In this document: positions 3,781 through 46,997 of the stretch, piece by piece
Layout: each line of letters begins with the position of its first letter
Numbering within the stretch: the first letter of the stretch is position 1
Assembly: GCA_018823285.1 (NCBI GenBank)
Contig: JAHJIQ010000007.1
Coordinates: 4,536 to 68,535 of the forward strand
Length of the DNA: 64,000 bases
Direction: 5' to 3'
Origin: Pseudomonadota bacterium
GTDB taxonomy: Bacteria; Desulfobacterota; Desulfobulbia; Desulfobulbales; JAGXFP01
The notes under the pieces: generated by a model
Told to the model about the DNA's origin: nothing
Database searches by the model: none
Seen by the model: the letters and a program-made list of their open reading frames with translations, nothing else
Position numbers and translations under genes: made by a program

Positions 3781-4674
3781 ATGACAGAATCACTGCCGAC
3801 CAATGATGTGAGGTTCAGGCAGATTCAGGACTATATCGACCGGATGCCGAGTCTTTCGACAACCGTTACGAAAGTGCTGGAAGTGTGCAATCGTCCCAAT
3901 ACTTCTCCCAATGATCTTAACCGAGTGATTTCCCTCGACCCGGTTCTCACCGGTCAGGTCCTCAAGCTGATCAATTCGGCTTATTATTCATTGCCCAACC
4001 AGATCACGTCACTCACCAGGGCCATCATTATGCTCGGCCTGAATACCGTTAAAAACCTGGCTTTGAGTACCGCTGTTCTCGGGGCTTTCAAGTCGGATGC
4101 CTTTCAGGCCCTGTCCATGGACGGATTCTGGGCCCACTCCATCTGCGTTGGAGTGACCGTAAAAACCCTGGCCGCGAAACTTGAAATTCCAGTGGCCATG
4201 CGGGAGGAGTATTTTGTAGCCGGTCTGCTTCACGATCTTGGTAAAATCCCGCTGAACAACTGCTTTTCAGAGGAGTACAGCCGGATATTGAACCTGGCGG
4301 TCCTTGAGCAGGGGCCGTTGAAGCGTGCCGAGGAGATGATGCTTGGCTTTGATCATGGTCAGGTTGGCGGAATGATCGCCGGCAAATGGCAACTCAATGA
4401 AGCAATTACCGATGTGCTGAGCGACCATCACACTCCGGAAAATATCACCGGGGAGAGAAGTCAGATGGTGATGATGACCAGTCTGGCCAATGTCTATGCC
4501 AACATCAATCAGTTCGGTACCGCAGGGGATCAGTATCAGGATGAATCCCAGCTTTCCTGGCTGTTGGAATCACTGGGTCTTAAATGGAGTGACCTGCAGG
4601 CGATGGAGGGGACGGTCAGGGCTGAAATTGAAAAAGCACAGATTTTTCTCCAAATCTCAGAGGAGGCGTGGTGA
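3781..4674 (+). CDS. HDOD domain signalling protein
   Basis: LPSLSTTVTKVLEVCNRPNTSPNDLNRVISLDPVLTGQVLKLINSAYYSL and the later HDLGK motif are typical of HDOD domains. Confidence 0.8.
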   Translation: MTESLPTNDVRFRQIQDYIDRMPSLSTTVTKVLEVCNRPNTSPNDLNRVISLDPVLTGQVLKLINSAYYSLPNQITSLTRAIIMLGLNTVKNLALSTAVLGAFKSDAFQALSMDGFWAHSICVGVTVKTLAAKLEIPVAMREEYFVAGLLHDLGKIPLNNCFSEEYSRILNLAVLEQGPLKRAEEMMLGFDHGQVGGMIAGKWQLNEAITDVLSDHHTPENITGERSQMVMMTSLANVYANINQFGTAGDQYQDESQLSWLLESLGLKWSDLQAMEGTVRAEIEKAQIFLQISEEAW

Positions 4675-37030: not shown

Positions 37031-37094
37031 CTCGAAAATGGAGTTTATACCCTGAGGGTTGTTGCTGCGACAAACTGTTGCAACTGGGAGTTTG

Positions 37095-39554
37095 ATGAAG
37101 AAACATATCCTGAGTGTTGTGTTGTTTGTCGTGGCAGTGACAATCTTGTCCGGCTGTGCTGTTTTCGAGAAAGGGCCGGTGGTTCCTCCTCCCTCTCCAG
37201 CAGAGTTGGCAGAGTTGCAGGAGTTTGGTGAGACGCTGGACTATCAGCGAGATATCCAGACCATCTTTGACCGCCGCTGTGTCGGCTGCCATTCCTGCTA
37301 CAACTCCCCGTGCCAGCTCAAGATGACCTCCTATGAGGGGGTCTGCCGGGGAGCGACCAAGACCAGGGTCTATAATGGAACACGTCTTGAAGCCGTCGCC
37401 CCGACCAGGCTCTTTATTGACGAGACTACCACTGAAGGATGGCGAAAGCGTGATTTCGTCGATGTGACCGGTCACGAAAAGGGGCTTGGCCCTGATTCAT
37501 TCATGTATCAGCTGCTTGATCTTAAGCAGGGAAATCCTGAGGTCAAAGGAGAGTACGATTCCGAGGCCAAGGATCTGGTCTGCTCACAGTCTGATCGCGA
37601 ACTGAAAAAATTCATGCGGAAAAATCCCCACGCCGGGATGCCGTTTGGTTTCCCCGAGATCAGCAAGGATGAGCGGCGAACCCTGAAAGCCTGGCTGGCT
37701 GCAGGCGCCAAAGGGCCGAGTCCGGAAGCGGACAGGATTCTGAAGATCCCTGCCAATGGCGAGATGGGTGAAGCGGTCATCAACAGATGGGAGGATTTTC
37801 TTAATGACGATTCTCCCAAAACGGTGGTGACTGCCCGCTATATCTATGAGCATCTTTTTCTTGCCCATATCGGATTTGAAGAGATTCCAGGTGATTTTTT
37901 CCGTCTGGTGCGCTCGCGCACTCCCGCCCCGCAGCCGGTGGATGAGATCGATACCGAGAAACCGTATGACGATCCCGGCGGGACGTTCTTTTATCGCTTT
38001 CTCAAAGAGCATAGCACCATCGTCTTCAAGACCCACATCATCTATCGATTAAGCGACGCGCGAATGGCCCGTTATCGGGAGCTTTTTCTGGAACCGGACT
38101 GGCCGGGAGAAACCATTATCGATCCGGGCTACGATCCTGATGGGTCGGCCAATCCCTTCTGGACCTTCAGGCAGATTCCACCCCGCTCCCGTTACCGGTT
38201 TCTCCTTGATGACAGCCGGTATTTCATCATGACCTTCATTCGCGGCCCGGTCTGTAAAGGGCAGATTGCCCTGAATGTTATCAATGACCATTTCTGGGTG
38301 ATGTTCCTCGATCCGGAGGTTGATCTTGCGGTCAATGATTCTGAGTATCTGGAGCGGAACATTGCCAATCTGCGGATGCCCATTGAAGACCGTGGCAGAT
38401 CGATCCTGGGAGCATATCTTCCCTATGCGGAGGCACAGAAAAGATACGTGATCAACAGGGCGATTGCCTATCAGGAAGCTTATCCGGAGGGGCAGGTGCT
38501 TGGAAATATCTGGGACGGAGATCGTGCAGAGTCAGACCCGTTTCTGACCATTTACCGGCATTTTGACAGCGCCACGGTGATTGCAGGGCCGGTGGGTGGG
38601 TACCCCAGAAGCGGCTGGGTGATAGACTTCCCTTTGTTTGAGAGGCTCTATTATAATCTGGTGGCCGGGTTTAATGTCTTCGGCAATGTCAAAGAGCAGG
38701 CTGGGATCAGAATGTATATGGATCTGCAGCGACGGGAGGGAGAAATGCTGTTTCTTGATTTCCTGCCGGCTGAAGCTCGCGATCCGGTATTGCGGCTCTG
38801 GTATCCGACCATGCTTTCCTACTGGTTTGCCTCCGACGAGGTTGAGATGTTGGAGAATGGGATCGAGACCGGAGTCTATTACCCGGAAATCCGGGGAAAT
38901 CCGGTGGATTACAAGGATGATTTTTTTGACCAGGTCATAAGCAATCGACTGCACCCGGATATTGGCTATGGTTATGACGGGATCAATTTCCATGACGATG
39001 ATCTTGACCGAACACCGGCAGAAAAAATCTCCTCCGAGAAAGATCTTGATCTGGAGTTTCGAAAACTGTCCCACCGAAGCGGCGGTTTTGCCAAAGGAAT
39101 TCCGGCAAAAGGGGATGTCGTCTTTATTCGTTTTACACGGGAAGGGCAGGAGGACCTGGTGTATACCATGATCCTCAACCGCTATCATGAGGATGTCGAG
39201 TTCATCAAGGGAGAAAATTGGCGCCTGAACAAAGACAAGGATACGGTCCATTTCCGTAAAGGGTTTCTTGGTGCCTATCCCAATACTTTTCTGCAGGTGG
39301 AATTAACTGAAGCTCCGCAATTTTTCAGAATGCTCGACAGCATCGCCGAGAAGCCCGATTCATACTATAGATTCTTTCAAAAGTTCGGGGTGAACCGTTC
39401 TGACCTGAAGTTCTGGGAGATATCCGACTTTTTCAATGAACGGTTCAAAAAGGACGAGCCGGAAACAGCCGGAATTTTCGATCTGAACAGATACACCAAC
39501 GAAGTGAAGCCGCCAGGATTCTGGGGCCGCCTGTTGTTTCATCTCAGAGACTGA
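37095..39554 (+). CDS. cti: Fatty-acid cis/trans isomerase (Cti)-like periplasmic heme-c lipoprotein
   Basis: Lipobox ILSGC. A single N-terminal heme motif in the context IFDRRCVGCHSCYNSPCQLKMTSYEG, as I recall it for the Cti family. Size ~820 aa. Confidence 0.65.
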   Translation: MKKHILSVVLFVVAVTILSGCAVFEKGPVVPPPSPAELAELQEFGETLDYQRDIQTIFDRRCVGCHSCYNSPCQLKMTSYEGVCRGATKTRVYNGTRLEAVAPTRLFIDETTTEGWRKRDFVDVTGHEKGLGPDSFMYQLLDLKQGNPEVKGEYDSEAKDLVCSQSDRELKKFMRKNPHAGMPFGFPEISKDERRTLKAWLAAGAKGPSPEADRILKIPANGEMGEAVINRWEDFLNDDSPKTVVTARYIYEHLFLAHIGFEEIPGDFFRLVRSRTPAPQPVDEIDTEKPYDDPGGTFFYRFLKEHSTIVFKTHIIYRLSDARMARYRELFLEPDWPGETIIDPGYDPDGSANPFWTFRQIPPRSRYRFLLDDSRYFIMTFIRGPVCKGQIALNVINDHFWVMFLDPEVDLAVNDSEYLERNIANLRMPIEDRGRSILGAYLPYAEAQKRYVINRAIAYQEAYPEGQVLGNIWDGDRAESDPFLTIYRHFDSATVIAGPVGGYPRSGWVIDFPLFERLYYNLVAGFNVFGNVKEQAGIRMYMDLQRREGEMLFLDFLPAEARDPVLRLWYPTMLSYWFASDEVEMLENGIETGVYYPEIRGNPVDYKDDFFDQVISNRLHPDIGYGYDGINFHDDDLDRTPAEKISSEKDLDLEFRKLSHRSGGFAKGIPAKGDVVFIRFTREGQEDLVYTMILNRYHEDVEFIKGENWRLNKDKDTVHFRKGFLGAYPNTFLQVELTEAPQFFRMLDSIAEKPDSYYRFFQKFGVNRSDLKFWEISDFFNERFKKDEPETAGIFDLNRYTNEVKPPGFWGRLLFHLRD

Positions 39555-40125: not shown

Positions 40126-40848
40126 CTACCGGAAGACGTTGGGGCCAGGTGAAGGTGACCTTGTAGCGGGTTGCAGTCCAGCGGGATTCAGATGTCTGGC
40201 GGCTTTCGGGATAAAAAAAGATGCTGCAAAAAGAAATACTGCCAACAGATTCTGCCAGGAGAGCAATGTTTCCCATCGGCCGCTGAGCCACACCTCGGTT
40301 AATGCCACGAAAAAGAAAGTCAGGATGATGCCGCTCCCGATCTTGCCGAAGAACGTCCCCCAGAAAAATTGACTGAAGGTCACTCCGGTCAGTCCCATAC
40401 TGAAGTTGAGCGGGGTGAAAGGAAAGAAAATGAGGCGGAGATAGAGGGTGGTTGTAAAGCCGTTCTCGGTAATTTTGCCGTCGTACATTTTTAATCGATC
40501 ATCTGCCACTGAGGCTGCAAAATCTCTCCCCAGATAACGACCAATCCAGAAACTCATTGAGGCGCCGAGCATTGCGCCGGCAAAGTTGCAGATGATTCCT
40601 CCTGACAAGCCGAACAGCATCGCGCCCATGGCGGTAAAAAAACTCGCGGGCAGGAACATGGAGATGCCGAAGCCATAGATAAGAATAAAAATTATTGGCG
40701 AGGCAAAGCTGTTGGCGGCAACAAAATTCCGCAGCGCCTGCGGCTCGATATACTGCCCGACAGGGGTAAGCCGAAAAATGAGTAGGGAAGAGAGCAGAAA
40801 GAGAATCAGAAGTATTGCCTTGATCAGCGGGTAATTTTTATTTCGCAT
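40126..40848 (-). CDS. TVP38/TMEM64 (DedA-related, VTT domain) membrane protein
   Basis: 240 aa, polytopic, with the GRYLGRDF motif typical of the family. Starts 12 nt after the methyltransferase stop. Confidence 0.75.
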   Translation of the reverse strand: MRNKNYPLIKAILLILFLLSSLLIFRLTPVGQYIEPQALRNFVAANSFASPIIFILIYGFGISMFLPASFFTAMGAMLFGLSGGIICNFAGAMLGASMSFWIGRYLGRDFAASVADDRLKMYDGKITENGFTTTLYLRLIFFPFTPLNFSMGLTGVTFSQFFWGTFFGKIGSGIILTFFFVALTEVWLSGRWETLLSWQNLLAVFLFAASFFIPKAARHLNPAGLQPATRSPSPGPNVFR

Positions 40849-40860
40849 GATTTTGCCGAT

Positions 40861-41757
40861 CTATTGTTCCCTGTAACCTTTGAACAGAGCCCCGCCGGTA
40901 TACTCGGAAGTGGAAAAACCTGTTTCACCAAGAAACTCTGCATTCTGGAAACCTGCCTCCTGCATCATCTTGAGCTGGTCCCCGACCGGGACCGTGCCGC
41001 CGATTCATTGTGACCAGGCTTCAGGGCTTGCCGCCAGCGAGTCAGGCAACTCTTTTTTGAGAATAATATCGGCGAACTGCAGCCTTCCCCCCGGTTTAAG
41101 AACCCGCCGGATTTCCGTAAAGAGTTGTTTTTTCCGGGGAGAAAGATTGATGACCCCATTGGAGATGGCAACGTCAAAGGTCTGGTCAGGATATGGGATA
41201 TTATCTGTATCGACATGATGGAGTTCAAAGTTTCTGATGTTCGCGAGTTCCATATTTTTTCGGGCCCGATTGACCATCTCTTCAGTGAGATCAATACCAC
41301 AGACCCTGCCTTTTTCGCCAACCAGCCTGCCGGCAACAATCATATCAAACCCGCCGCCACAGCCGATATCGAGAACCTGACTGCCGGGTGGAATCGCATC
41401 AATTGAAAACGGGTTTCCCACGCTGCAGAAAGACGCAAGTAATTCCGCGGGGGAATTCTCCACAATGATTTGGTCATAGTTCAGTGCCAGCGCCCCATTT
41501 TTACCGGTGGGGTATTGGAATTTTCCTTCAGCAGAGACAGCCACGGCCGCATACTTGCTTCGGATGGCATCTCTGATGGTGTTGAAATTATCCGAGGCTG
41601 ATATTTCACACGAGCTCGGGAAGTGTTGTTTCTTCAAACGACTGAAGAAACTCAGAAGGGTTGTGAGGAAGCCCGGGCTTTCTTGCCGACGACCGCCGGC
41701 ATTTCCCTTCGAGGGTCAACAACGGGGATTTGAAATTGTATTCTCATTATCAGTCAT
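40861..41757 (-). CDS. ArsM-like SAM-dependent methyltransferase SELENOPROTEIN (in-frame UGA at 41005-41007, plus a probable second UGA at 41716-41718)
   Basis: The tracked ORF (41005..41637) stops at a TGA, but the frame continues for 47 more codons (IGGTVPVGDQLKMMQEAGFQNAEFLGETGF...) to TAG 40861. The UGA falls at WSQ-U-IGG, where ArsM-type enzymes have W..C(I/V)(A/G)G. Upstream, the only strong RBS (AAGGAGG, 7 nt) serves ATG 41757. That ATG is in frame through ...NPRC-UGA-PSKG... into the tracked ORF. Motif I is VLDIGCGGGFD. Confidence 0.75.
40977..40993 (-). promoter_or_regulatory. SECIS-like hairpin for the C-terminal UGA of the methyltransferase
   Basis: GGUCCC-GGUCG-GGGACC begins 12 nt 3' of the UGA. 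The GGUC-type apical loop matches classical bacterial SECIS elements. Confidence 0.6.
41684..41701 (-). promoter_or_regulatory. SECIS-like hairpin for the N-terminal UGA of the methyltransferase
   Basis: UGCCGGC-GGUC-GUCGGCA (7-bp stem including one G.U pair, GGUC tetraloop) begins 15 nt 3' of the UGA. Confidence 0.5.
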
Positions 41758-41774: not shown

Positions 41775-42065
41775 TCATTTTACAAACAGAGAGTATGCGA
41801 TCATGCCCAGACTGAAGACCGTTACGCCATGTAGAAGCGGCATGCTCCAGGGGCTGGCGTGTTCCCGAGCTTTGTAGGCCCGGTAATAGGCAAAACCAAG
41901 CAAGACAACAGTGGCAACGAGAAAGAGCCAGCGGTATCTGGCAAACCACATGGACAGGGTAAAACTTCCCAGGCCGAAACTGGCCAGGAGCAGAGGGAGT
42001 TGTCAGCAGAAGGCGTAGGCGAGTGCAGAGGTGACTGCGCCTCCGCCGACGAGTTTATTGTCCAT
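41775..42065 (-). CDS. MerT-like small membrane transporter SELENOPROTEIN (Cys-Sec pair in TM1; UGA at 42003-42005)
   Basis: Absent from the ORF track. ATG 42065 with RBS aggaga gives MDNKLVGGGAVTSALAYAFC-U-QLPLLLASFGLGSF...(96 codons) ending at TGA 41775. This resembles MerT TM1 (...ILASACCLGPLVLIALG...), with the second Cys of the CC pair replaced by UGA. Confidence 0.65.
41969..41988 (-). promoter_or_regulatory. SECIS-like hairpin for the MerT-like gene
   Basis: CCUGGCC-AGUUUC-GGCCUGG begins 15 nt 3' of the UGA (one U.U mismatch). Confidence 0.45.
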
Positions 42066-42085
42066 TTTTATCTCCTTTCCAGTGC

Positions 42086-42550
42086 TTATTTCAGAATTTC
42101 TTCAATACCGGTTACAAGTTCGGAATAATGAATGCTATGTGAGATTTTCTTTTCGATCCGTCCATCCCTTGAAATAAAATAAGTCTCCGGAATCCCTTTG
42201 GCGCCGAGGGTTTCGGCGATTCCATCTTCCGGGCCGACCGGATAGGTCAAGTGAAACTCTTTCGCGAATTTCCGGATATCCTTGTCTTTGCTCAGTGTAA
42301 AAGCGCCGAGAAAAAGAACGCCCCTGTCCTTGTAAACCTGGTATGCCCGCTGTAACTCAGGGGCTTCGGCTTTACATTTTTTTCACCAGTGCGAGCCGAT
42401 GTTTATCACCAGGGGCGTTCCTTTGAGGTCGCTCAGGATGTACGTGGTTCCTTCCAGATCGGTGAATGAAAAGTTCAATGCAGTGCTTGCATATAAAGGG
42501 CTGCCGACCAGAAGGGTCACAAGTAAATAAAATGGGACAATGTGTTTCAC
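42086..42550 (-). CDS. TlpA/ResA-like periplasmic thiol:disulfide oxidoreductase SELENOPROTEIN (W-U-K-K-C active site; UGA at 42383-42385)
   Basis: Absent from the ORF track. GTG 42550 overlaps the stop of the upstream kinase (GTGA). The protein has a signal peptide (KHIVPFYLLVTLLVGSPLYA), then FSFTDLEGTTYILSDLKGTPLVINIGSHW-U-KKCKAEAPELQRAY...GIPETYFISRDGRI. This is a full redoxin fold with Sec at the first position of the CxxC motif. 154 codons to TAA 42086. Confidence 0.8.
42345..42364 (-). promoter_or_regulatory. SECIS-like hairpin for the TlpA-like gene
   Basis: GCCCCUG-AGUUA-CAG(C)GGGC begins 19 nt 3' of the UGA (7 bp with one bulged C). Confidence 0.5.
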
Positions 42551-43602
42551 GATGAAGTGCCTCCTGCGGGTTGATTATGTATTGCCGGACCAATGGGAAG
42601 AGAGATCGTGAAAGTCGAACCTTGTCCGGGTTGACTGTCAACACTGACCGATCCATTATGCTCCCTGGCGGTACGTTCCACGATAGGCAGGCCAAGACCG
42701 GGGCCGTTTGTTTTTGTTGTGTAAAAAGGTTTGAAGATGTTTTTCTGTTCTTCCTGGGAGATACCGGGGCCATGATCCGTAACTGAAATTCTTACCGTTT
42801 TCCCGTCGGTGGACGTGCCCACAAGAATTTCTGTATTTGCCGCAGAGGATTCCACGCTGTTCTCAAGGAGCTTGGTCAGCGCTTCACGCATTCTTGCGGT
42901 GTCGCAAGGGGTCAGTGGCAGGTGTTCCGCCAGCCTGAGCAGCACCGGTTTTTTCAGGTTGTCCACGGAATTTGAAAATTCATCAACCGCTGTACGGGTC
43001 ACGCTGTTGATGTCGCATGGTTCGAGTGCCAGCGGGGCCGGATTGGAAAAACTTAAGAATATCGAGGTCAGGGTGTTCAGCTTCTTGACCTCTTCTTCAA
43101 TAACGTTCAGGAATTCGGTGACGAGCTCCCCGTGGAAATTTTTTTTCAGATACGAGGCGGCGATGCCGATTGAATGCAGGGGGTTCCTTGTTTCATGGGC
43201 CACGGCGGCGATCATGTTGCCGAGTTCAGCGGTGCGAGCGTCTTTTGCCTGCTGCCGATCGTTTTTTTCCTGTTCCGAGAGATTGAATTTCAGGTCCTTG
43301 ACCATCTGGTTGAAGACCTCGACAAATTCACTGATTTCGTCCCCGCACGACTCCTTGTAGACCACACATTTGCGGCAATCTCCCAGCTTCTGGGCGAATT
43401 CCCCCTGAACAGCTCCGTGGCAGCTGGTTCCGGCGATGGACCAGCATCGGAGTCTGCCGTAAGCCGGGCAATCTTTTTTTTCACAGCCGAGTCGTTCCCA
43501 GCATTTGACGATCTGCGGATTTTCCTCTTCCACATCATAATTGCCGGACTGCAGGGCGATCATCTTTTCCTTCAAGGACTGGAGTTTTTTGATCTTGCTC
43601 AT
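42547..43602 (-). CDS. Soluble sensor histidine kinase with an N-terminal Cys-rich two-CW-type domain
   Basis: N-terminus KCWERLGCEKKDCPAYGRLRCWSIAGTSCHG...CRKCVVYKESC (two CW dipeptides, 9 Cys), a coiled coil, then HisKA (AAVAHETRNPL) and HATPase_c (GPGLGLPIV). No TM segment. Confidence 0.8.
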   Translation of the reverse strand: MSKIKKLQSLKEKMIALQSGNYDVEEENPQIVKCWERLGCEKKDCPAYGRLRCWSIAGTSCHGAVQGEFAQKLGDCRKCVVYKESCGDEISEFVEVFNQMVKDLKFNLSEQEKNDRQQAKDARTAELGNMIAAVAHETRNPLHSIGIAASYLKKNFHGELVTEFLNVIEEEVKKLNTLTSIFLSFSNPAPLALEPCDINSVTRTAVDEFSNSVDNLKKPVLLRLAEHLPLTPCDTARMREALTKLLENSVESSAANTEILVGTSTDGKTVRISVTDHGPGISQEEQKNIFKPFYTTKTNGPGLGLPIVERTAREHNGSVSVDSQPGQGSTFTISLPIGPAIHNQPAGGTSS

Positions 43603-43633: not shown

Positions 43634-44968
43634 TCAGGGTTGAAGCAGGCCGAGATTTTTCATCTTGGTGCGTAGCTGCTTTCTGGAAATGCCCAGGATG
43701 ACGGCCGCGCTGGACTGGTTCCATGCCGCCTTGTCGAGGGCTTTTCTGATGATCTTTTTTTCCATTTCCGGCAGGTTCAGCTCGTTTAGTTCAAGGCACT
43801 CTTCCTCGCCGGTGGCCCTGATCTTACAGGGCAGGCACTCGATATTGATTGAATCGTGAGGGCAGAGGATGACTGCCCGCTCCATAACGTTTTCCAGTTC
43901 CCGGACGTTGCCTTGCCAGTCATATTGTTTAAGGATATCAAATACTTCCCGGTCTATCCCGTGTATTTTTTTCTTGTTCTTGCGGCAGAAGTGGTCGAGG
44001 TAATAATTGGCCAGCAGCGAGATGTCGTCCTTTCTTTCCCGCAGGGGGGGCACATTGATGGTGATTACATTCAAACGGTAATAAAGATCGGTGCGGAAAT
44101 CGCCGGAGTCGACATCTTTTTCAATGTCCCGGTTGGTGGCGGAGATGACCCTGACATCGACCATGATACTTTCTTTGCCACCCACCCGGCGGATCTCTCT
44201 TTCCTGGAGAAAGCGGAGCAGTTTTTTTTCAAGCGCGTAATCAAGATCGCCGATTTCGTCCAGGAAAACTGTGCCGCCATGGGCCATTTCGATCAGGCCG
44301 ATCTTGCGTTCTCCGGCCCCGGAAAAAGCCCCTTTCTCGTAGCCGAACAACTCGCTTTCCATCAGCTCGGAGGGGATGGTCGTGCAATCGATGGGGATAA
44401 ACGGCTTGTCGGCGCGAAGAGATGAATAGTGGACAGCCCTGGCCACCAGTTCCTTGCCGGTTCCCGATTCTCCGAGAATCAGAATGTTGGCATCGGTCTT
44501 GGCAACCCTCCGGACCAGGGAGAAGACCTCCTGCATCGGTTTGGTTTTGCCGATGATATTCAGGAACTGATGCCTGCCGGGTGTTTCGTCATCCTCGTCG
44601 CGTTCACGCGGGAAAAGCACATCATTGACCACGCTTTCCATGACGTTCAGCTTTACCGGCTTGGTAAGATAGGTGTATGCACCCTTGCGCATGGCGTTCA
44701 CGGCAAGTTCAATGGTGCCGAACGCGGTGAGCAGAATGAAGGGCGTCTCCGGGGTCATGGTCTTGACCTTTTCCAGGAGCTCTTCGCCGTTCATTCCCGC
44801 CATCTTGTAGTCGGAGATAACAAGGTCGTAGTGAGTGCTTTTGCACAGCTCAAGTGCCTCTTCACCGGAGCGGGCGGTTTCCACAACCTTGTCTTTGCCC
44901 GAGAGCGCGGCGGACAGAACCTTCAGGGAATTGATCTCGTCGTCCACCAGCAGAATTTTATATGACAT
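43634..44968 (-). CDS. NtrC-family sigma-54-dependent response regulator (REC, AAA+, Fis-type HTH)
   Basis: REC domain (LLVDDE...D in DLVISDYKMAGMNG), AAA+ Walker A GESGTGKE, sigma-54 contact loop GAFSGA, and a C-terminal HTH (AAVILGISRKQLRTKMK). Confidence 0.9.
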   Translation of the reverse strand: MSYKILLVDDEINSLKVLSAALSGKDKVVETARSGEEALELCKSTHYDLVISDYKMAGMNGEELLEKVKTMTPETPFILLTAFGTIELAVNAMRKGAYTYLTKPVKLNVMESVVNDVLFPRERDEDDETPGRHQFLNIIGKTKPMQEVFSLVRRVAKTDANILILGESGTGKELVARAVHYSSLRADKPFIPIDCTTIPSELMESELFGYEKGAFSGAGERKIGLIEMAHGGTVFLDEIGDLDYALEKKLLRFLQEREIRRVGGKESIMVDVRVISATNRDIEKDVDSGDFRTDLYYRLNVITINVPPLRERKDDISLLANYYLDHFCRKNKKKIHGIDREVFDILKQYDWQGNVRELENVMERAVILCPHDSINIECLPCKIRATGEEECLELNELNLPEMEKKIIRKALDKAAWNQSSAAVILGISRKQLRTKMKNLGLLQP

Positions 44969-44974
44969 CAGCGG

Positions 44975-46720
44975 TTATCCTCCTTGCAGGATGAGCGTGA
45001 ATTTGCTGCCTTGCCCTTCGGTGCTTTCCAGGACAAGATCGCCCCGGTGCTCCCTGGCGATCTTTTTGGAAATGGCCAGGCCCAGGCCGGTGCCCCTGGT
45101 CTTGGTGGTATAAAAAGGATTGAAGACATGTCTGATTTTGTCCGGGGCGATGCCCGATCCGTCATCTTCTACAACAAGATGGACTTTTCCCTGGACGGCA
45201 AGTGTCGAAATAGAGACCTTGCCATCCCGGTCGATGGCGTCAAAGGCATTGATCAGCAGATTGATCAGCACCTGCTTGATCTGGTTCTGGTCACAATGAA
45301 CGGGTGGAAGCGAGGAGTCGATATCGGAAACGAGAGTGATGCCATGGCTTCTGGCCTCTTCACCCAGCAGGGAAAGGGTGGTGCGGACAATCTCGCCCAG
45401 GTCGTTCGGGGCCAGCTCCTGGACCATGGGTTTGGCAAAACCGAGCAATGTCCCGGTCAGCTTGTTGATGCGTGAAACCTCATCGCTAATGACCCCGGTG
45501 AACTCTTCGATAAGGCTGCCGCTGTAGTTTTTCCGGATATAACCTGCCGCCCCGCCGATGGCGTTTAGCGGGTTTTTGATCTCATGGGCGAGGGTTGCCG
45601 CGAGCTCCCCGGTTGCGGCGAGCCGGCACAATCTTTCCTGCTCGTCGACGGCGTGGCCGAGTTTCATGACCATTTCATTGAAGGCGTTCGACAACTCGCC
45701 AATTTCATCGGTCCCGGAAACCGGGATGTTTCTGTTGAAACCTTCGTCGACCAGCCGGTCGACGGAATTTTTGAGAAGGAGGATCGGTCGGACAAGTCTG
45801 ATGATCAGCCCCAGGCCGAAAACAAGGGTGGCCGCAAAAGAGATCAGCATCAGGATGAAAACCAGCAGCCTCCGGCCTTCAAGGTCGAGGGGGCTTATGT
45901 TCTCGTAAAAAATTACCGTGCCGAAGAGAATCAGGGGGACGGCGGTCAGGAGACTGAAGGCGGTCAGGGCCCGGAAGAGAATGCTTGAGCCGAGAGTGGT
46001 GAAGGTCGTCCGGTTGATGCTGAAGAGGAGAATCATAAAGCCTACCGGCCGGAACAGATGCCCGTGCAGCCAGACGGCAGAGCCTATGGGGGCCGGGAAG
46101 AAAAGGAAGGTTGCAGAAATGCAGAGCAGGAGAAAACCGATTGCCGACCAGAGAATTTCTATTTTGCGGGTCCGGTAAAATGCGGCAAAGAGCAGCATGC
46201 AGACCAGCCCGCTTAAATAGGCGACACTGATCCAGACCAGCGGTCGGAACTGGCCGAAGATCGGGAATTTCTCGTAAATATCGGGAACCAGAAAGCCAAG
46301 CAGGGGCAGATAACAGAGCAGAAGGATCTTTTTCCGACCGGGATTTTCAGAAGAGATGGCCACGATAAAGGTCAGGAGGCCGAAACAATATCCCAGCAGG
46401 GTCTGGTACAGGAGGTTCAGGTTCAGGTGGTTCAGGTGGATAACCGCATGGAAGAAGCTGCTGATCCCTAAAATCAGGAAGGAGGCGGAGAAAAGCATCG
46501 CCCGGCTCTTGTGAACATGATCAAGGCCGGGGGTTCGGTGATGCATCAGGATAAATCTGGTGGCGATGATCAGACAGATTGAAGCGATAAGAAATTCCTC
46601 GCCCGTGTGATAATCGAGCAGGAATCCTTTATCGGTATAGTAGGAGGGCCAGTTCATCAAGAATTTGCTTTTCTCCTGATATTTTTTGCATGGACGGGAA
46701 ACCAAAAATGCACAATCCAT
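44975..46720 (-). CDS. Membrane sensor histidine kinase (multi-TM sensor, HAMP, HisKA, HATPase_c)
   Basis: About 8 TM helices, then HAMP-like, ATLAHEIKNPL (H-box) and GTGLGLAISKKIA (G2 box). An alternative start at 46657 (MNWPSYY) is possible. Confidence 0.85.
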   Translation of the reverse strand: MDCAFLVSRPCKKYQEKSKFLMNWPSYYTDKGFLLDYHTGEEFLIASICLIIATRFILMHHRTPGLDHVHKSRAMLFSASFLILGISSFFHAVIHLNHLNLNLLYQTLLGYCFGLLTFIVAISSENPGRKKILLLCYLPLLGFLVPDIYEKFPIFGQFRPLVWISVAYLSGLVCMLLFAAFYRTRKIEILWSAIGFLLLCISATFLFFPAPIGSAVWLHGHLFRPVGFMILLFSINRTTFTTLGSSILFRALTAFSLLTAVPLILFGTVIFYENISPLDLEGRRLLVFILMLISFAATLVFGLGLIIRLVRPILLLKNSVDRLVDEGFNRNIPVSGTDEIGELSNAFNEMVMKLGHAVDEQERLCRLAATGELAATLAHEIKNPLNAIGGAAGYIRKNYSGSLIEEFTGVISDEVSRINKLTGTLLGFAKPMVQELAPNDLGEIVRTTLSLLGEEARSHGITLVSDIDSSLPPVHCDQNQIKQVLINLLINAFDAIDRDGKVSISTLAVQGKVHLVVEDDGSGIAPDKIRHVFNPFYTTKTRGTGLGLAISKKIAREHRGDLVLESTEGQGSKFTLILQGG

Positions 46721-46981: not shown

Positions 46982-46997
46982 TGGCATTATCTTTGCA
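46982..46997 (+). promoter_or_regulatory. Sigma-54 (-24/-12) promoter upstream of the tusA-like/dsrE-like genes
   Basis: TGGCAT-TATCT-TTGCA has the exact GG-N10-GC spacing of the TGGCAC-N5-TTGCW consensus. It lies 84 nt upstream of ATG 47081. Confidence 0.7.

Follow-up and report, generated by a model that had tools for sequence, protein, structure and literature searches.

The mercuric ion transporter MerT carries two adjacent cysteines in its first transmembrane helix (TM1), an essential pair that accepts Hg(II). In the mer system this pair hands the ion to NmerA/MerA, and MerA has a further vicinal cysteine pair at its C-terminus. Here we describe a small gene from a 64,000-nucleotide stretch of DNA from a bacterium of the Desulfobulbales (positions 4,536 to 68,535 of contig JAHJIQ010000007.1, assembly GCA_018823285.1; the whole stretch is called the window below). 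It very probably encodes a MerT-family selenoprotein, a membrane protein of 96 residues and three helices in which selenocysteine (Sec, U) takes the place of the second metal-binding cysteine.

MerT-family selenoproteins with a Cys-Sec (CU) dipeptide have been mentioned by Haft & Gwadz (bioRxiv 10.1101/2022.07.06.499078; 2023 J Bacteriol), with WP_250634603.1 as an example. According to the preprint the CU dipeptide is rare and is tied to heavy-metal proteins such as HgcA, SaoB/C and those of MerT type (bioRxiv 10.1101/2022.07.06.499078). Zhang & Gladyshev had included a 'putative mercuric transport protein' (ABB16073.1; Pfam MerT, PF02411) among the selenoproteins predicted in prokaryotes (PMC2398784, PMC9312934, PMC13188914). 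The MerT-family CU selenoprotein is therefore already known as a kind, and NCBIfam holds a model for it (NF045683). The original prediction for this gene, made from the letters of the window, called a membrane-embedded selenocysteine unusual; this is true, but in view of these reports it is not new.

The analysis supports a broader statement, that this is a Sec-decoded inner-membrane protein of the MerT superfamily which relays a thiophilic metal or metalloid during import, with a probability of about 0.6. The evidence for decoding and for family membership is given first, followed by the gene neighbourhood on which the relay depends.

Decoding of the in-frame UGA

The reading frame runs as MDNKLVGGGAVTSALAYAFC-TGA-QLPLLLASFGLGSFTLSMWFARYRWLFLVATVVLLGFAYYRAYKAREHASPWSMPLLHGVTVFSLGMIAYSLFVK and is terminated by another TGA. 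Codons 20 and 21 are TGC-TGA, which places the pair in the context ALAYAFC-U-QLPLLLASFGLG, and 75 further codons remain open past the TGA. Kyte-Doolittle hydropathy, averaged over a sliding window of 15 residues, marks three hydrophobic segments at approximately residues 10–36, 46–60 and 77–95, the second and third of them separated by the basic loop YRAYKAREH. An AlphaFold model of an ortholog, computed from the ortholog alignment, has helices at 5–43, 45–65 and 72–95, at low confidence (predicted local distance difference test, pLDDT, 62.8; predicted template modelling score, pTM, 0.31). What had been read from the sequence at the outset, namely an AGGAGA ribosome-binding site ahead of the ATG at 42065, a TGC-TGA pair within a hydrophobic helix and two more transmembrane helices beyond it, is found again in the sequence, in the hydropathy profile and in this low-confidence model.

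To follow the TGA codon across related genes, orthologous DNA was collected as 22 distinct sequences from Desulfobulbales-type metagenome-assembled genomes (MAGs) and metagenomes. The sources were 11 loci from species-representative genomes, nearly all of them Desulfobulbales/Desulfobacterota MAGs, 9 metagenome loci, and the contigs of three database proteins described below. Codon 21 is TGA in all 22 sequences. The codons on either side of it vary synonymously, with TGT in 12 and TGC in 10 at codon 20 and CAG in 13 and CAA in 9 at codon 22, and the terminal stop varies (TAA in 14, TGA in 4 and TAG in 1, the remaining 3 sequences being partial). The 20 codons before the TGA are kept in frame as M-K-E-K-x-A-S-G-G-A-V-T-x-A-L-A-Y-x-x-C. 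Nonsynonymous to synonymous substitution ratios (dN/dS; Nei-Gojobori, 10 sequences) are 0.14 before the TGA and 0.10–0.16 after it, so that the purifying selection downstream of the TGA which had been named beforehand as a check is present. The conservation of C-U, likewise proposed as a check, is complete among the orthologs, and the pair aligns with the CC of distant Cys-type MerT-like proteins.

A reading of the TGA as tryptophan or glycine was considered and rejected, since the MerT-like gene and many of its neighbours terminate with TGA, as expected of an organism without a general TGA-sense code. Two flanking genes contain three more in-frame TGAs at positions equivalent to cysteine, each followed by a similar hairpin 14–21 nt on, with the loops AGUUA, GGUC and GGUCG. 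These three additional candidate Sec codons argue indirectly for the presence of the Sec trait in the organism. Outside this cluster a crude scan of the window for other genes with in-frame TGA found nothing convincing.

The stretch 41969–41988, where a selenocysteine insertion sequence (SECIS) element had been suspected, forms the core of a slightly longer candidate hairpin, 5'-GCUCCUGGCC-AGUUUC-GGCC(U)GGG(A)AGU-3'. Its stem begins 14 nt past the U of the UGA and its apical loop lies 21 nt from the UGA, and both this spacing and the GU in the loop fit known bacterial SECIS elements. Synonymous sites within the hairpin are nearly frozen, with a synonymous divergence (dS) of 0.26 for codons 25–34; the value is 0.99 before the TGA and reaches 2.76 over the remaining downstream codons. 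The only stem changes among the orthologs retain pairing: a G-C to G-U change in loci L003 and L020, and a U-A to U-G change. Taken together, these features make it very likely that the UGA at codon 21 is decoded as selenocysteine.

Public annotation gives a different picture of the gene. All close homologs in the databases start just past the TGA position, at differing and often non-ATG starts (ATG, TTG, GTG, CTN) that lie within TM1, which is the signature of gene callers halting at a recoded codon. One of them, the 58-residue 'hypothetical protein' KKG47_05440 from a MAG labelled 'Proteobacteria bacterium', is 100% identical to the window sequence. Three full-length entries read C-W-Q at the site. 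We considered them as tryptophan variants and rejected this, because the DNA of their contigs has TGA (P0010 and P0041 being the two entries looked up) and translation with table 11 does not give the database protein; the W is evidently a gene-calling artefact of genetic code 4. In none of the sources searched is the short Desulfobulbales form named as a selenoprotein, the copies being either fragments called 'hypothetical protein' or sequences with W at the site. In the public copies found, genome annotation misses the metal-binding helix entirely.

Relationship to MerT and the gene neighbourhood

For profile searches the U of the window protein was replaced by C. The protein then matches NCBIfam merT_RC607 (NF033560) with E = 3.2e-11 and 43.5 bits against a cut-off of 130, the match spanning positions 3–96 of 97. 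It also matches Pfam MerT (PF02411; E = 1.1e-5, 25.9 bits, cut-off 32.9), NCBIfam MerTP (E = 1e-6, 28.5 bits, cut-off 180), NCBIfam MerT (PRK13751, NF010314; E = 1.4e-5, 25.2 bits, cut-off 150) and, over profile positions 14–77, the 'MerT/CopZ fusion-like heavy metal transport selenoprotein' model NF045683 (E = 2.6e-5, 23.8 bits, cut-off 375). The MerC profile is matched more weakly. Pfam MerT is matched by 10 of the 10 orthologs tested, with a best E-value of 3.6e-7. An exhaustive phmmer search with the 75 post-TGA residues against 1.84 billion representatives returned only 30 proteins at E ≤ 1e-3, the distant ones being Cys-type MerT-like proteins and MerT-HMA fusions. When these are aligned jointly with the Sec clade, the CC-x-x-P-L of the distant Cys homologs (P0020, P0031–P0039) sits exactly on C-U-Q-L-P-L. 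A search of the PDB with the ortholog profile gave only a chance match, to caveolin (E = 0.83).

The loop between TM2 and TM3, YKAREHASPWSMP, is free of cysteine in the Sec clade; in the Cys homologs a second pair, C-x(4-7)-C, occupies this loop. The proposal of a MerT-like protein with Cys-Sec in place of CC thus holds as regards the profile matches, the aligned pair and the three helices, but it has to be qualified by the sub-threshold scores, the missing loop pair and the lack of a mer operon. For these three reasons the sequence comparison identifies the protein as a relative of the MerT family and not as a canonical MerT.

Downstream of the MerT-like gene one arrangement recurs. Of the 18 loci whose sequence extends far enough, 16 have a following gene that opens with a C-U-[APT]P...GGR[QR] tail, usually after a gap of 8–18 nt (154 nt in L018, and a 4-nt overlap in L005). 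One tail type is thus joined, always directly after the MerT-like gene, to two unrelated protein bodies. The body is ArsM-like in four loci (the window, L001, L003 and L024) and DUF5714/MbdU-like in 12, where the NCBIfam model for MbdU, a 'metal-binding double selenoprotein', is matched with E = 1e-119. MbdU and the Tso operon reportedly originate from the work of Haft & Tolstoy in 2025 (mSystems e0141724). Among the loci whose downstream genes begin with the tail are L002, L004, L005, L007–L009, L014, L016 and L018–L020.

Upstream, a gene for a redoxin with a W-U-xx-C motif is conserved in 14 related loci. MbdU-type loci carry in addition a TsoR-like metalloregulator of ArsR/SmtB type and, just upstream, a TsoA-related selenoprotein (NF045695, E = 4e-15); its in-frame TGA falls in ...DMVEH-U-IKEC..., a motif that differs from the LULAxC after which TsoA is named. 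The more divergent ortholog in L023 has other neighbours (L023:63-2911): three DsrE-like genes, SHOCT-domain proteins, and a flavoprotein resembling dihydrolipoamide dehydrogenase that has CxxxxC, with neither the C-terminal cysteine pair of MerA nor an NmerA domain.

In the window the genes of the cluster are tightly packed and all on the reverse strand, in the order kinase, regulator, kinase, redoxin, MerT-like protein, ArsM-type protein and DedA/VTT-domain protein (Table 1). The order of kinase, regulator and kinase is repeated in L001, and in L001 and L003 a DedA/VTT gene likewise comes after the ArsM-like one. The redoxin gene shares 4 nt with the end of the histidine kinase gene, and the hairpin after the redoxin TGA, with the loop AGUUA, folds better than its shuffles (z = -2.7). 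In public lists of open reading frames (ORFs) the redoxin gene is split in two.

The ArsM-type protein, an S-adenosylmethionine (SAM) methyltransferase homolog, appears from its sequence to be a double selenoprotein. The first TGA lies in the N-terminal tail, ...NPRC-U-PSKGNAGGRRQ..., and the second in AWSQ-U-IGG, where it aligns with Cys224 of the crystallised CmArsM. At the position of CmArsM Cys174 the protein has glycine, and no cysteine aligns with Cys44; both TGAs and the glycine are kept in L001, L003 and L024. The hairpins after the two TGAs have the loops GGUC and GGUCG, respectively. Because the protein scores below the cut-off of all three NCBIfam models for ArsM selenoproteins (NF041537, NF041536 and NF047649), it may represent a further architecture beyond them.

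Several observations concern the cytosolic histidine kinase and the surroundings of the cluster. Residues ~33–90 of this kinase form a cysteine-rich segment, CWERLGCEKKDCPAYGRLRCWSIAGTSCHG...C..C...C, that lies outside all Pfam and NCBIfam models and is a possible metal or redox sensor of the cluster. A scan for sigma-54 promoters gave 37 matches window-wide as against 36 expected, none of them on the reverse strand near the cluster. One site, TGGCATTATCTTTGCA, departs from the sigma-54 consensus by one mismatch and is directed away from the kinase-regulator-kinase genes; the sigma-54 activator encoded in the cluster may act on it, such matches being at chance level across the window. The gene just past DedA, on the opposite strand, encodes a fatty acid cis/trans isomerase (Pfam CTI, E = 2.7e-219), in which a CxxCH haem motif is present.

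Table 1. Coordinates of features in the window and in related loci (entries with an L prefix refer to related loci, all others to the window)
Feature	Position	Strand	Remarks
MerT-like selenoprotein, coding sequence	41775..42065	-	96 aa; Cys20-Sec21 in TM1; stop TGA 41777..41775
Shine-Dalgarno-like AGGAGA	42076..42071	-	5-nt spacer to ATG 42065..42063; read from sequence
TGC-TGA, Cys20-Sec21	42008..42003	-	TGC 42008..42006; TGA 42005..42003
Candidate bacterial SECIS hairpin	41991..41964	-	upper stem CCUGGCC/GGCC(U)GG; apical loop AGUUUC with GU
Sensor kinase	46720..44975	-	
Sigma-54-dependent response regulator	44968..43634	-	
Second kinase (histidine kinase)	43602..42547	-	Cys-rich N-terminus
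TlpA/ResA-like redoxin selenoprotein	42550..42086	-	signal-peptide-like N-terminus; GSHW-U-KK-C; TGA 42385..42383
ArsM-type SAM methyltransferase	41757..40861	-	two in-frame TGAs; 17 nt after MerT-like stop
ArsM-type gene, TGA 1	41718..41716	-	N-terminal tail
ArsM-type gene, tail hairpin	41702..41687	-	GCCGGC-GGUC-GUCGGC
ArsM-type gene, TGA 2	41007..41005	-	
DedA/VTT-domain membrane protein	40848..40126	-	last gene of cluster
Sigma-54 promoter-like site	46982..46997	+	one mismatch to consensus
Fatty acid cis/trans isomerase	37059..39554	+	
Full-length C-W-Q orthologs P0010, P0040, P0041 (JGI, ENA, Logan calls)	L023:4001-4290; L024:1183-1473; L025:1163-1453		
TsoA-related gene	L002:3400-4004; L004:3370-4004; L008:3360-3992		

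A proposed metal relay and its alternatives

We propose that the protein is a small importer of a thiophilic metal or metalloid, for example Hg(II) or As(III), in which ligands are exchanged at the C-U pair. The ion would be taken up at the periplasmic face, with the exported W-U-xx-C redoxin as a possible donor or helper, and the thiolate/selenolate pair would hold it within the membrane. From there it would go straight to the N-terminal Cys-Sec tail, a flexible extension of the cytosolic protein whose gene lies downstream, and onward from the tail to the active or binding site of that partner. The low pKa and soft selenolate of selenocysteine would favour binding that is tight yet kinetically labile. 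As the protein is without the cytoplasmic cysteine pair of MerT, the tail of the partner would replace the step at the loop cysteines. In the window this partner belongs to the ArsM-type SAM methyltransferases and carries Sec at the CysD metal-binding position, so that methylation of the cargo would follow; the acceptor of most related loci would instead be the MbdU-like cysteine-rich metal-binding protein. The close-packed order of an exported U-xx-C redoxin, a membrane C-U protein and a C-U-tailed cytosolic protein speaks for such a relay, as do the ArsR/SmtB-type regulators of the MbdU-type loci and the reported tie of the CU dipeptide to heavy-metal proteins, and we regard the mechanism, read from gene order and sequence motifs, as somewhat better than an even bet. 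A more specific version is unlikely: here the relay would be dedicated, all-selenium and of a type not described before, and the window variant would feed an ArsM-type enzyme without the CysC ligand, which would rely on Sec at CysD together with the C-U tail, completing a pathway of import and methylation.

A number of observations count against this interpretation as a whole. Shuffled versions fold about as stably as the SECIS candidate itself (z = -0.5 to -0.8), and no fully compensatory base-pair change occurs among the orthologs, which can be put down to a stem that is almost invariant; support for the hairpin accordingly comes from conservation and position and not from folding energy. 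Genes for the Sec machinery and tRNA-Sec were not found in the 64-kb window, where Rfam and tRNA scans gave no SECIS-type family and a tRNA-Arg as the sole tRNA. The confidence of the ortholog model is low, and despite their significant E-values all profile matches fall under the curated family cut-offs. The cluster in the window contains no merA, merP or merR, and in the related loci the MerT-like gene is not adjoined by merA or merP. The C-U-tailed partner is missing in two of the 18 loci (L010 and L023). Finally, the codons of the tail's GGR(R/Q)Q motif lie within the SECIS hairpin that belongs to the tail, so that the similarity between tails is possibly in part an RNA constraint.

These points bear on three alternatives, one of which is that there is no selenoprotein at all. 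The TGA would then terminate translation, leaving a 20-codon leader ORF and a separate membrane protein of 58–75 residues, or the gene would be a pseudogene. The public gene calls, which all begin past the TGA or read W, would agree with this, as would a hairpin no more stable than its shuffles. We consider it extremely unlikely, since the 20 upstream codons are held in frame (dN/dS 0.14) and contribute a GGxA(V/I)TSALAY...C motif that completes TM1, the TGA is invariant while true stops vary, the Cys homologs run continuously across the site, and the starts chosen by gene callers scatter inside TM1. If the UGA is decoded, the protein might still be a canonical MerT importing Hg(II) for reduction by MerA, with Sec merely replacing one cysteine. 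MerT models do give the best matches, merT_RC607 over its full length, and CU occupies the identical position to CC. This too is very unlikely, as merA, merP and merR are absent from the cluster and the related loci, where the only pyridine-nucleotide disulfide oxidoreductase nearby, in L023, is without the C-terminal pair and NmerA; the loop pair is also lacking and the scores are far under the equivalog cut-offs.

A transmembrane redox relay without any metal transport is the main alternative. TlpA/ResA proteins usually need a membrane electron conduit, and a vicinal C-U is a known redox centre. The Cys-Sec pair would cycle between selenenylsulfide and thiol/selenol, like the GCUG tail of mammalian thioredoxin reductase, and would pass reducing equivalents from the cytosolic CU tail to the exported W-U-xx-C redoxin in a minimal CcdA/DsbD-like role. 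Both the conservation of the TlpA/ResA-like redoxin in 14 loci and the absence of the cytoplasmic cysteine pair typical of MerT would suit such a function. Against it, the similarity is to metal transporters of MerT, MerC and MerF type and not to CcdA/DsbD, the partners are a homolog of metal(loid) methyltransferases and a cysteine-rich protein annotated as 'metal-binding', and ArsR/SmtB metalloregulators lie nearby. Moreover, in the closest locus, L001, no gene for a redoxin stands between those for the kinase and the MerT-like protein. In the light of these points we judge a redox relay to be fairly unlikely.

The metal relay thus remains our preferred reading. Were its more specific, all-selenium version to hold as well, sulfate-reducing Desulfobulbales would be able to import and methylate a soft metal or metalloid, and this could provide a route to methylated mercury or arsenic independent of HgcAB or of canonical ArsM chemistry. 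The protein would be a clean natural case of selenocysteine in a membrane helix at a metal-exchange site, and the conserved trio of outer Sec redoxin, membrane C-U protein and cytosolic C-U tail points to selenium-based trafficking of metals or metalloids. The anaerobes concerned matter for the cycling of mercury and arsenic.

Comparison with described systems

MerT proteins are characterised by three transmembrane helices in some 100–116 residues. The canonical MerT of Tn21/Tn501 (PF02411, NF010314) and the short Bacillus RC607 type (NF033560) share with the window protein these three helices, the conserved motif (Y/W)R(P/W) before TM2 and, in TM1, a vicinal pair with x-x-P-L after it; the length of the window protein is close to that of the RC607 type. 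It differs from both in having Sec for the second cysteine, in lacking the cysteine pair between TM2 and TM3, and in standing outside a mer operon.

The MerT–NmerA/MerA hand-off is the nearest analogy for the proposed relay, in that a membrane vicinal pair passes a soft metal to a flexible cysteine-pair appendage of an adjacently encoded enzyme. In the relay proposed here both pairs would be Cys-Sec, a short tail at the N-terminus would stand in for the HMA domain as acceptor, and the enzyme would be a methyltransferase or a cysteine-rich binder rather than a reductase. The MbdU (NF045648)/Tso neighbourhoods come close in another way, as the 12 related loci share an MbdU gene with an N-terminal C-U tail and have TsoR-like and TsoA-related genes upstream. 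The window differs from them in containing no MbdU or Tso homolog detectable by tblastn, and the same tail is there fused to an ArsM-type methyltransferase.

Among known selenoproteins, ABB16073.1 is set apart from the window protein by its description, its Sec motif being given in a 2026 review as C/SxxU and not as vicinal CU. In the loose sense of Haft & Gwadz, which combines MerT homology with a Cys-Sec pair, the window protein is a MerT-family CU selenoprotein. The proteins described by these authors and by NF045683 have in common with the window clade a MerT-like membrane domain, an in-frame UGA, the Cys-Sec pair and an occurrence in selenoprotein-rich anaerobes. However, NF045683 joins its Sec-containing MerT domain to a CopZ/HMA domain in a protein of ~235 residues, whereas members of the window clade have 96 residues and no CopZ/HMA domain, and the window protein scores better on the Cys-type merT_RC607 model (43.5 bits) than on this selenoprotein model (23.8).

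Since the kind has already been noted, the gain is incremental unless a relay to the methyltransferase is shown. What the window clade adds is a short form that lacks both CopZ and the loop cysteines, with Sec in all 22 sequences sampled, and what the window locus adds is the pairing of this form with a CU-tailed, apparently double selenoprotein of ArsM type.

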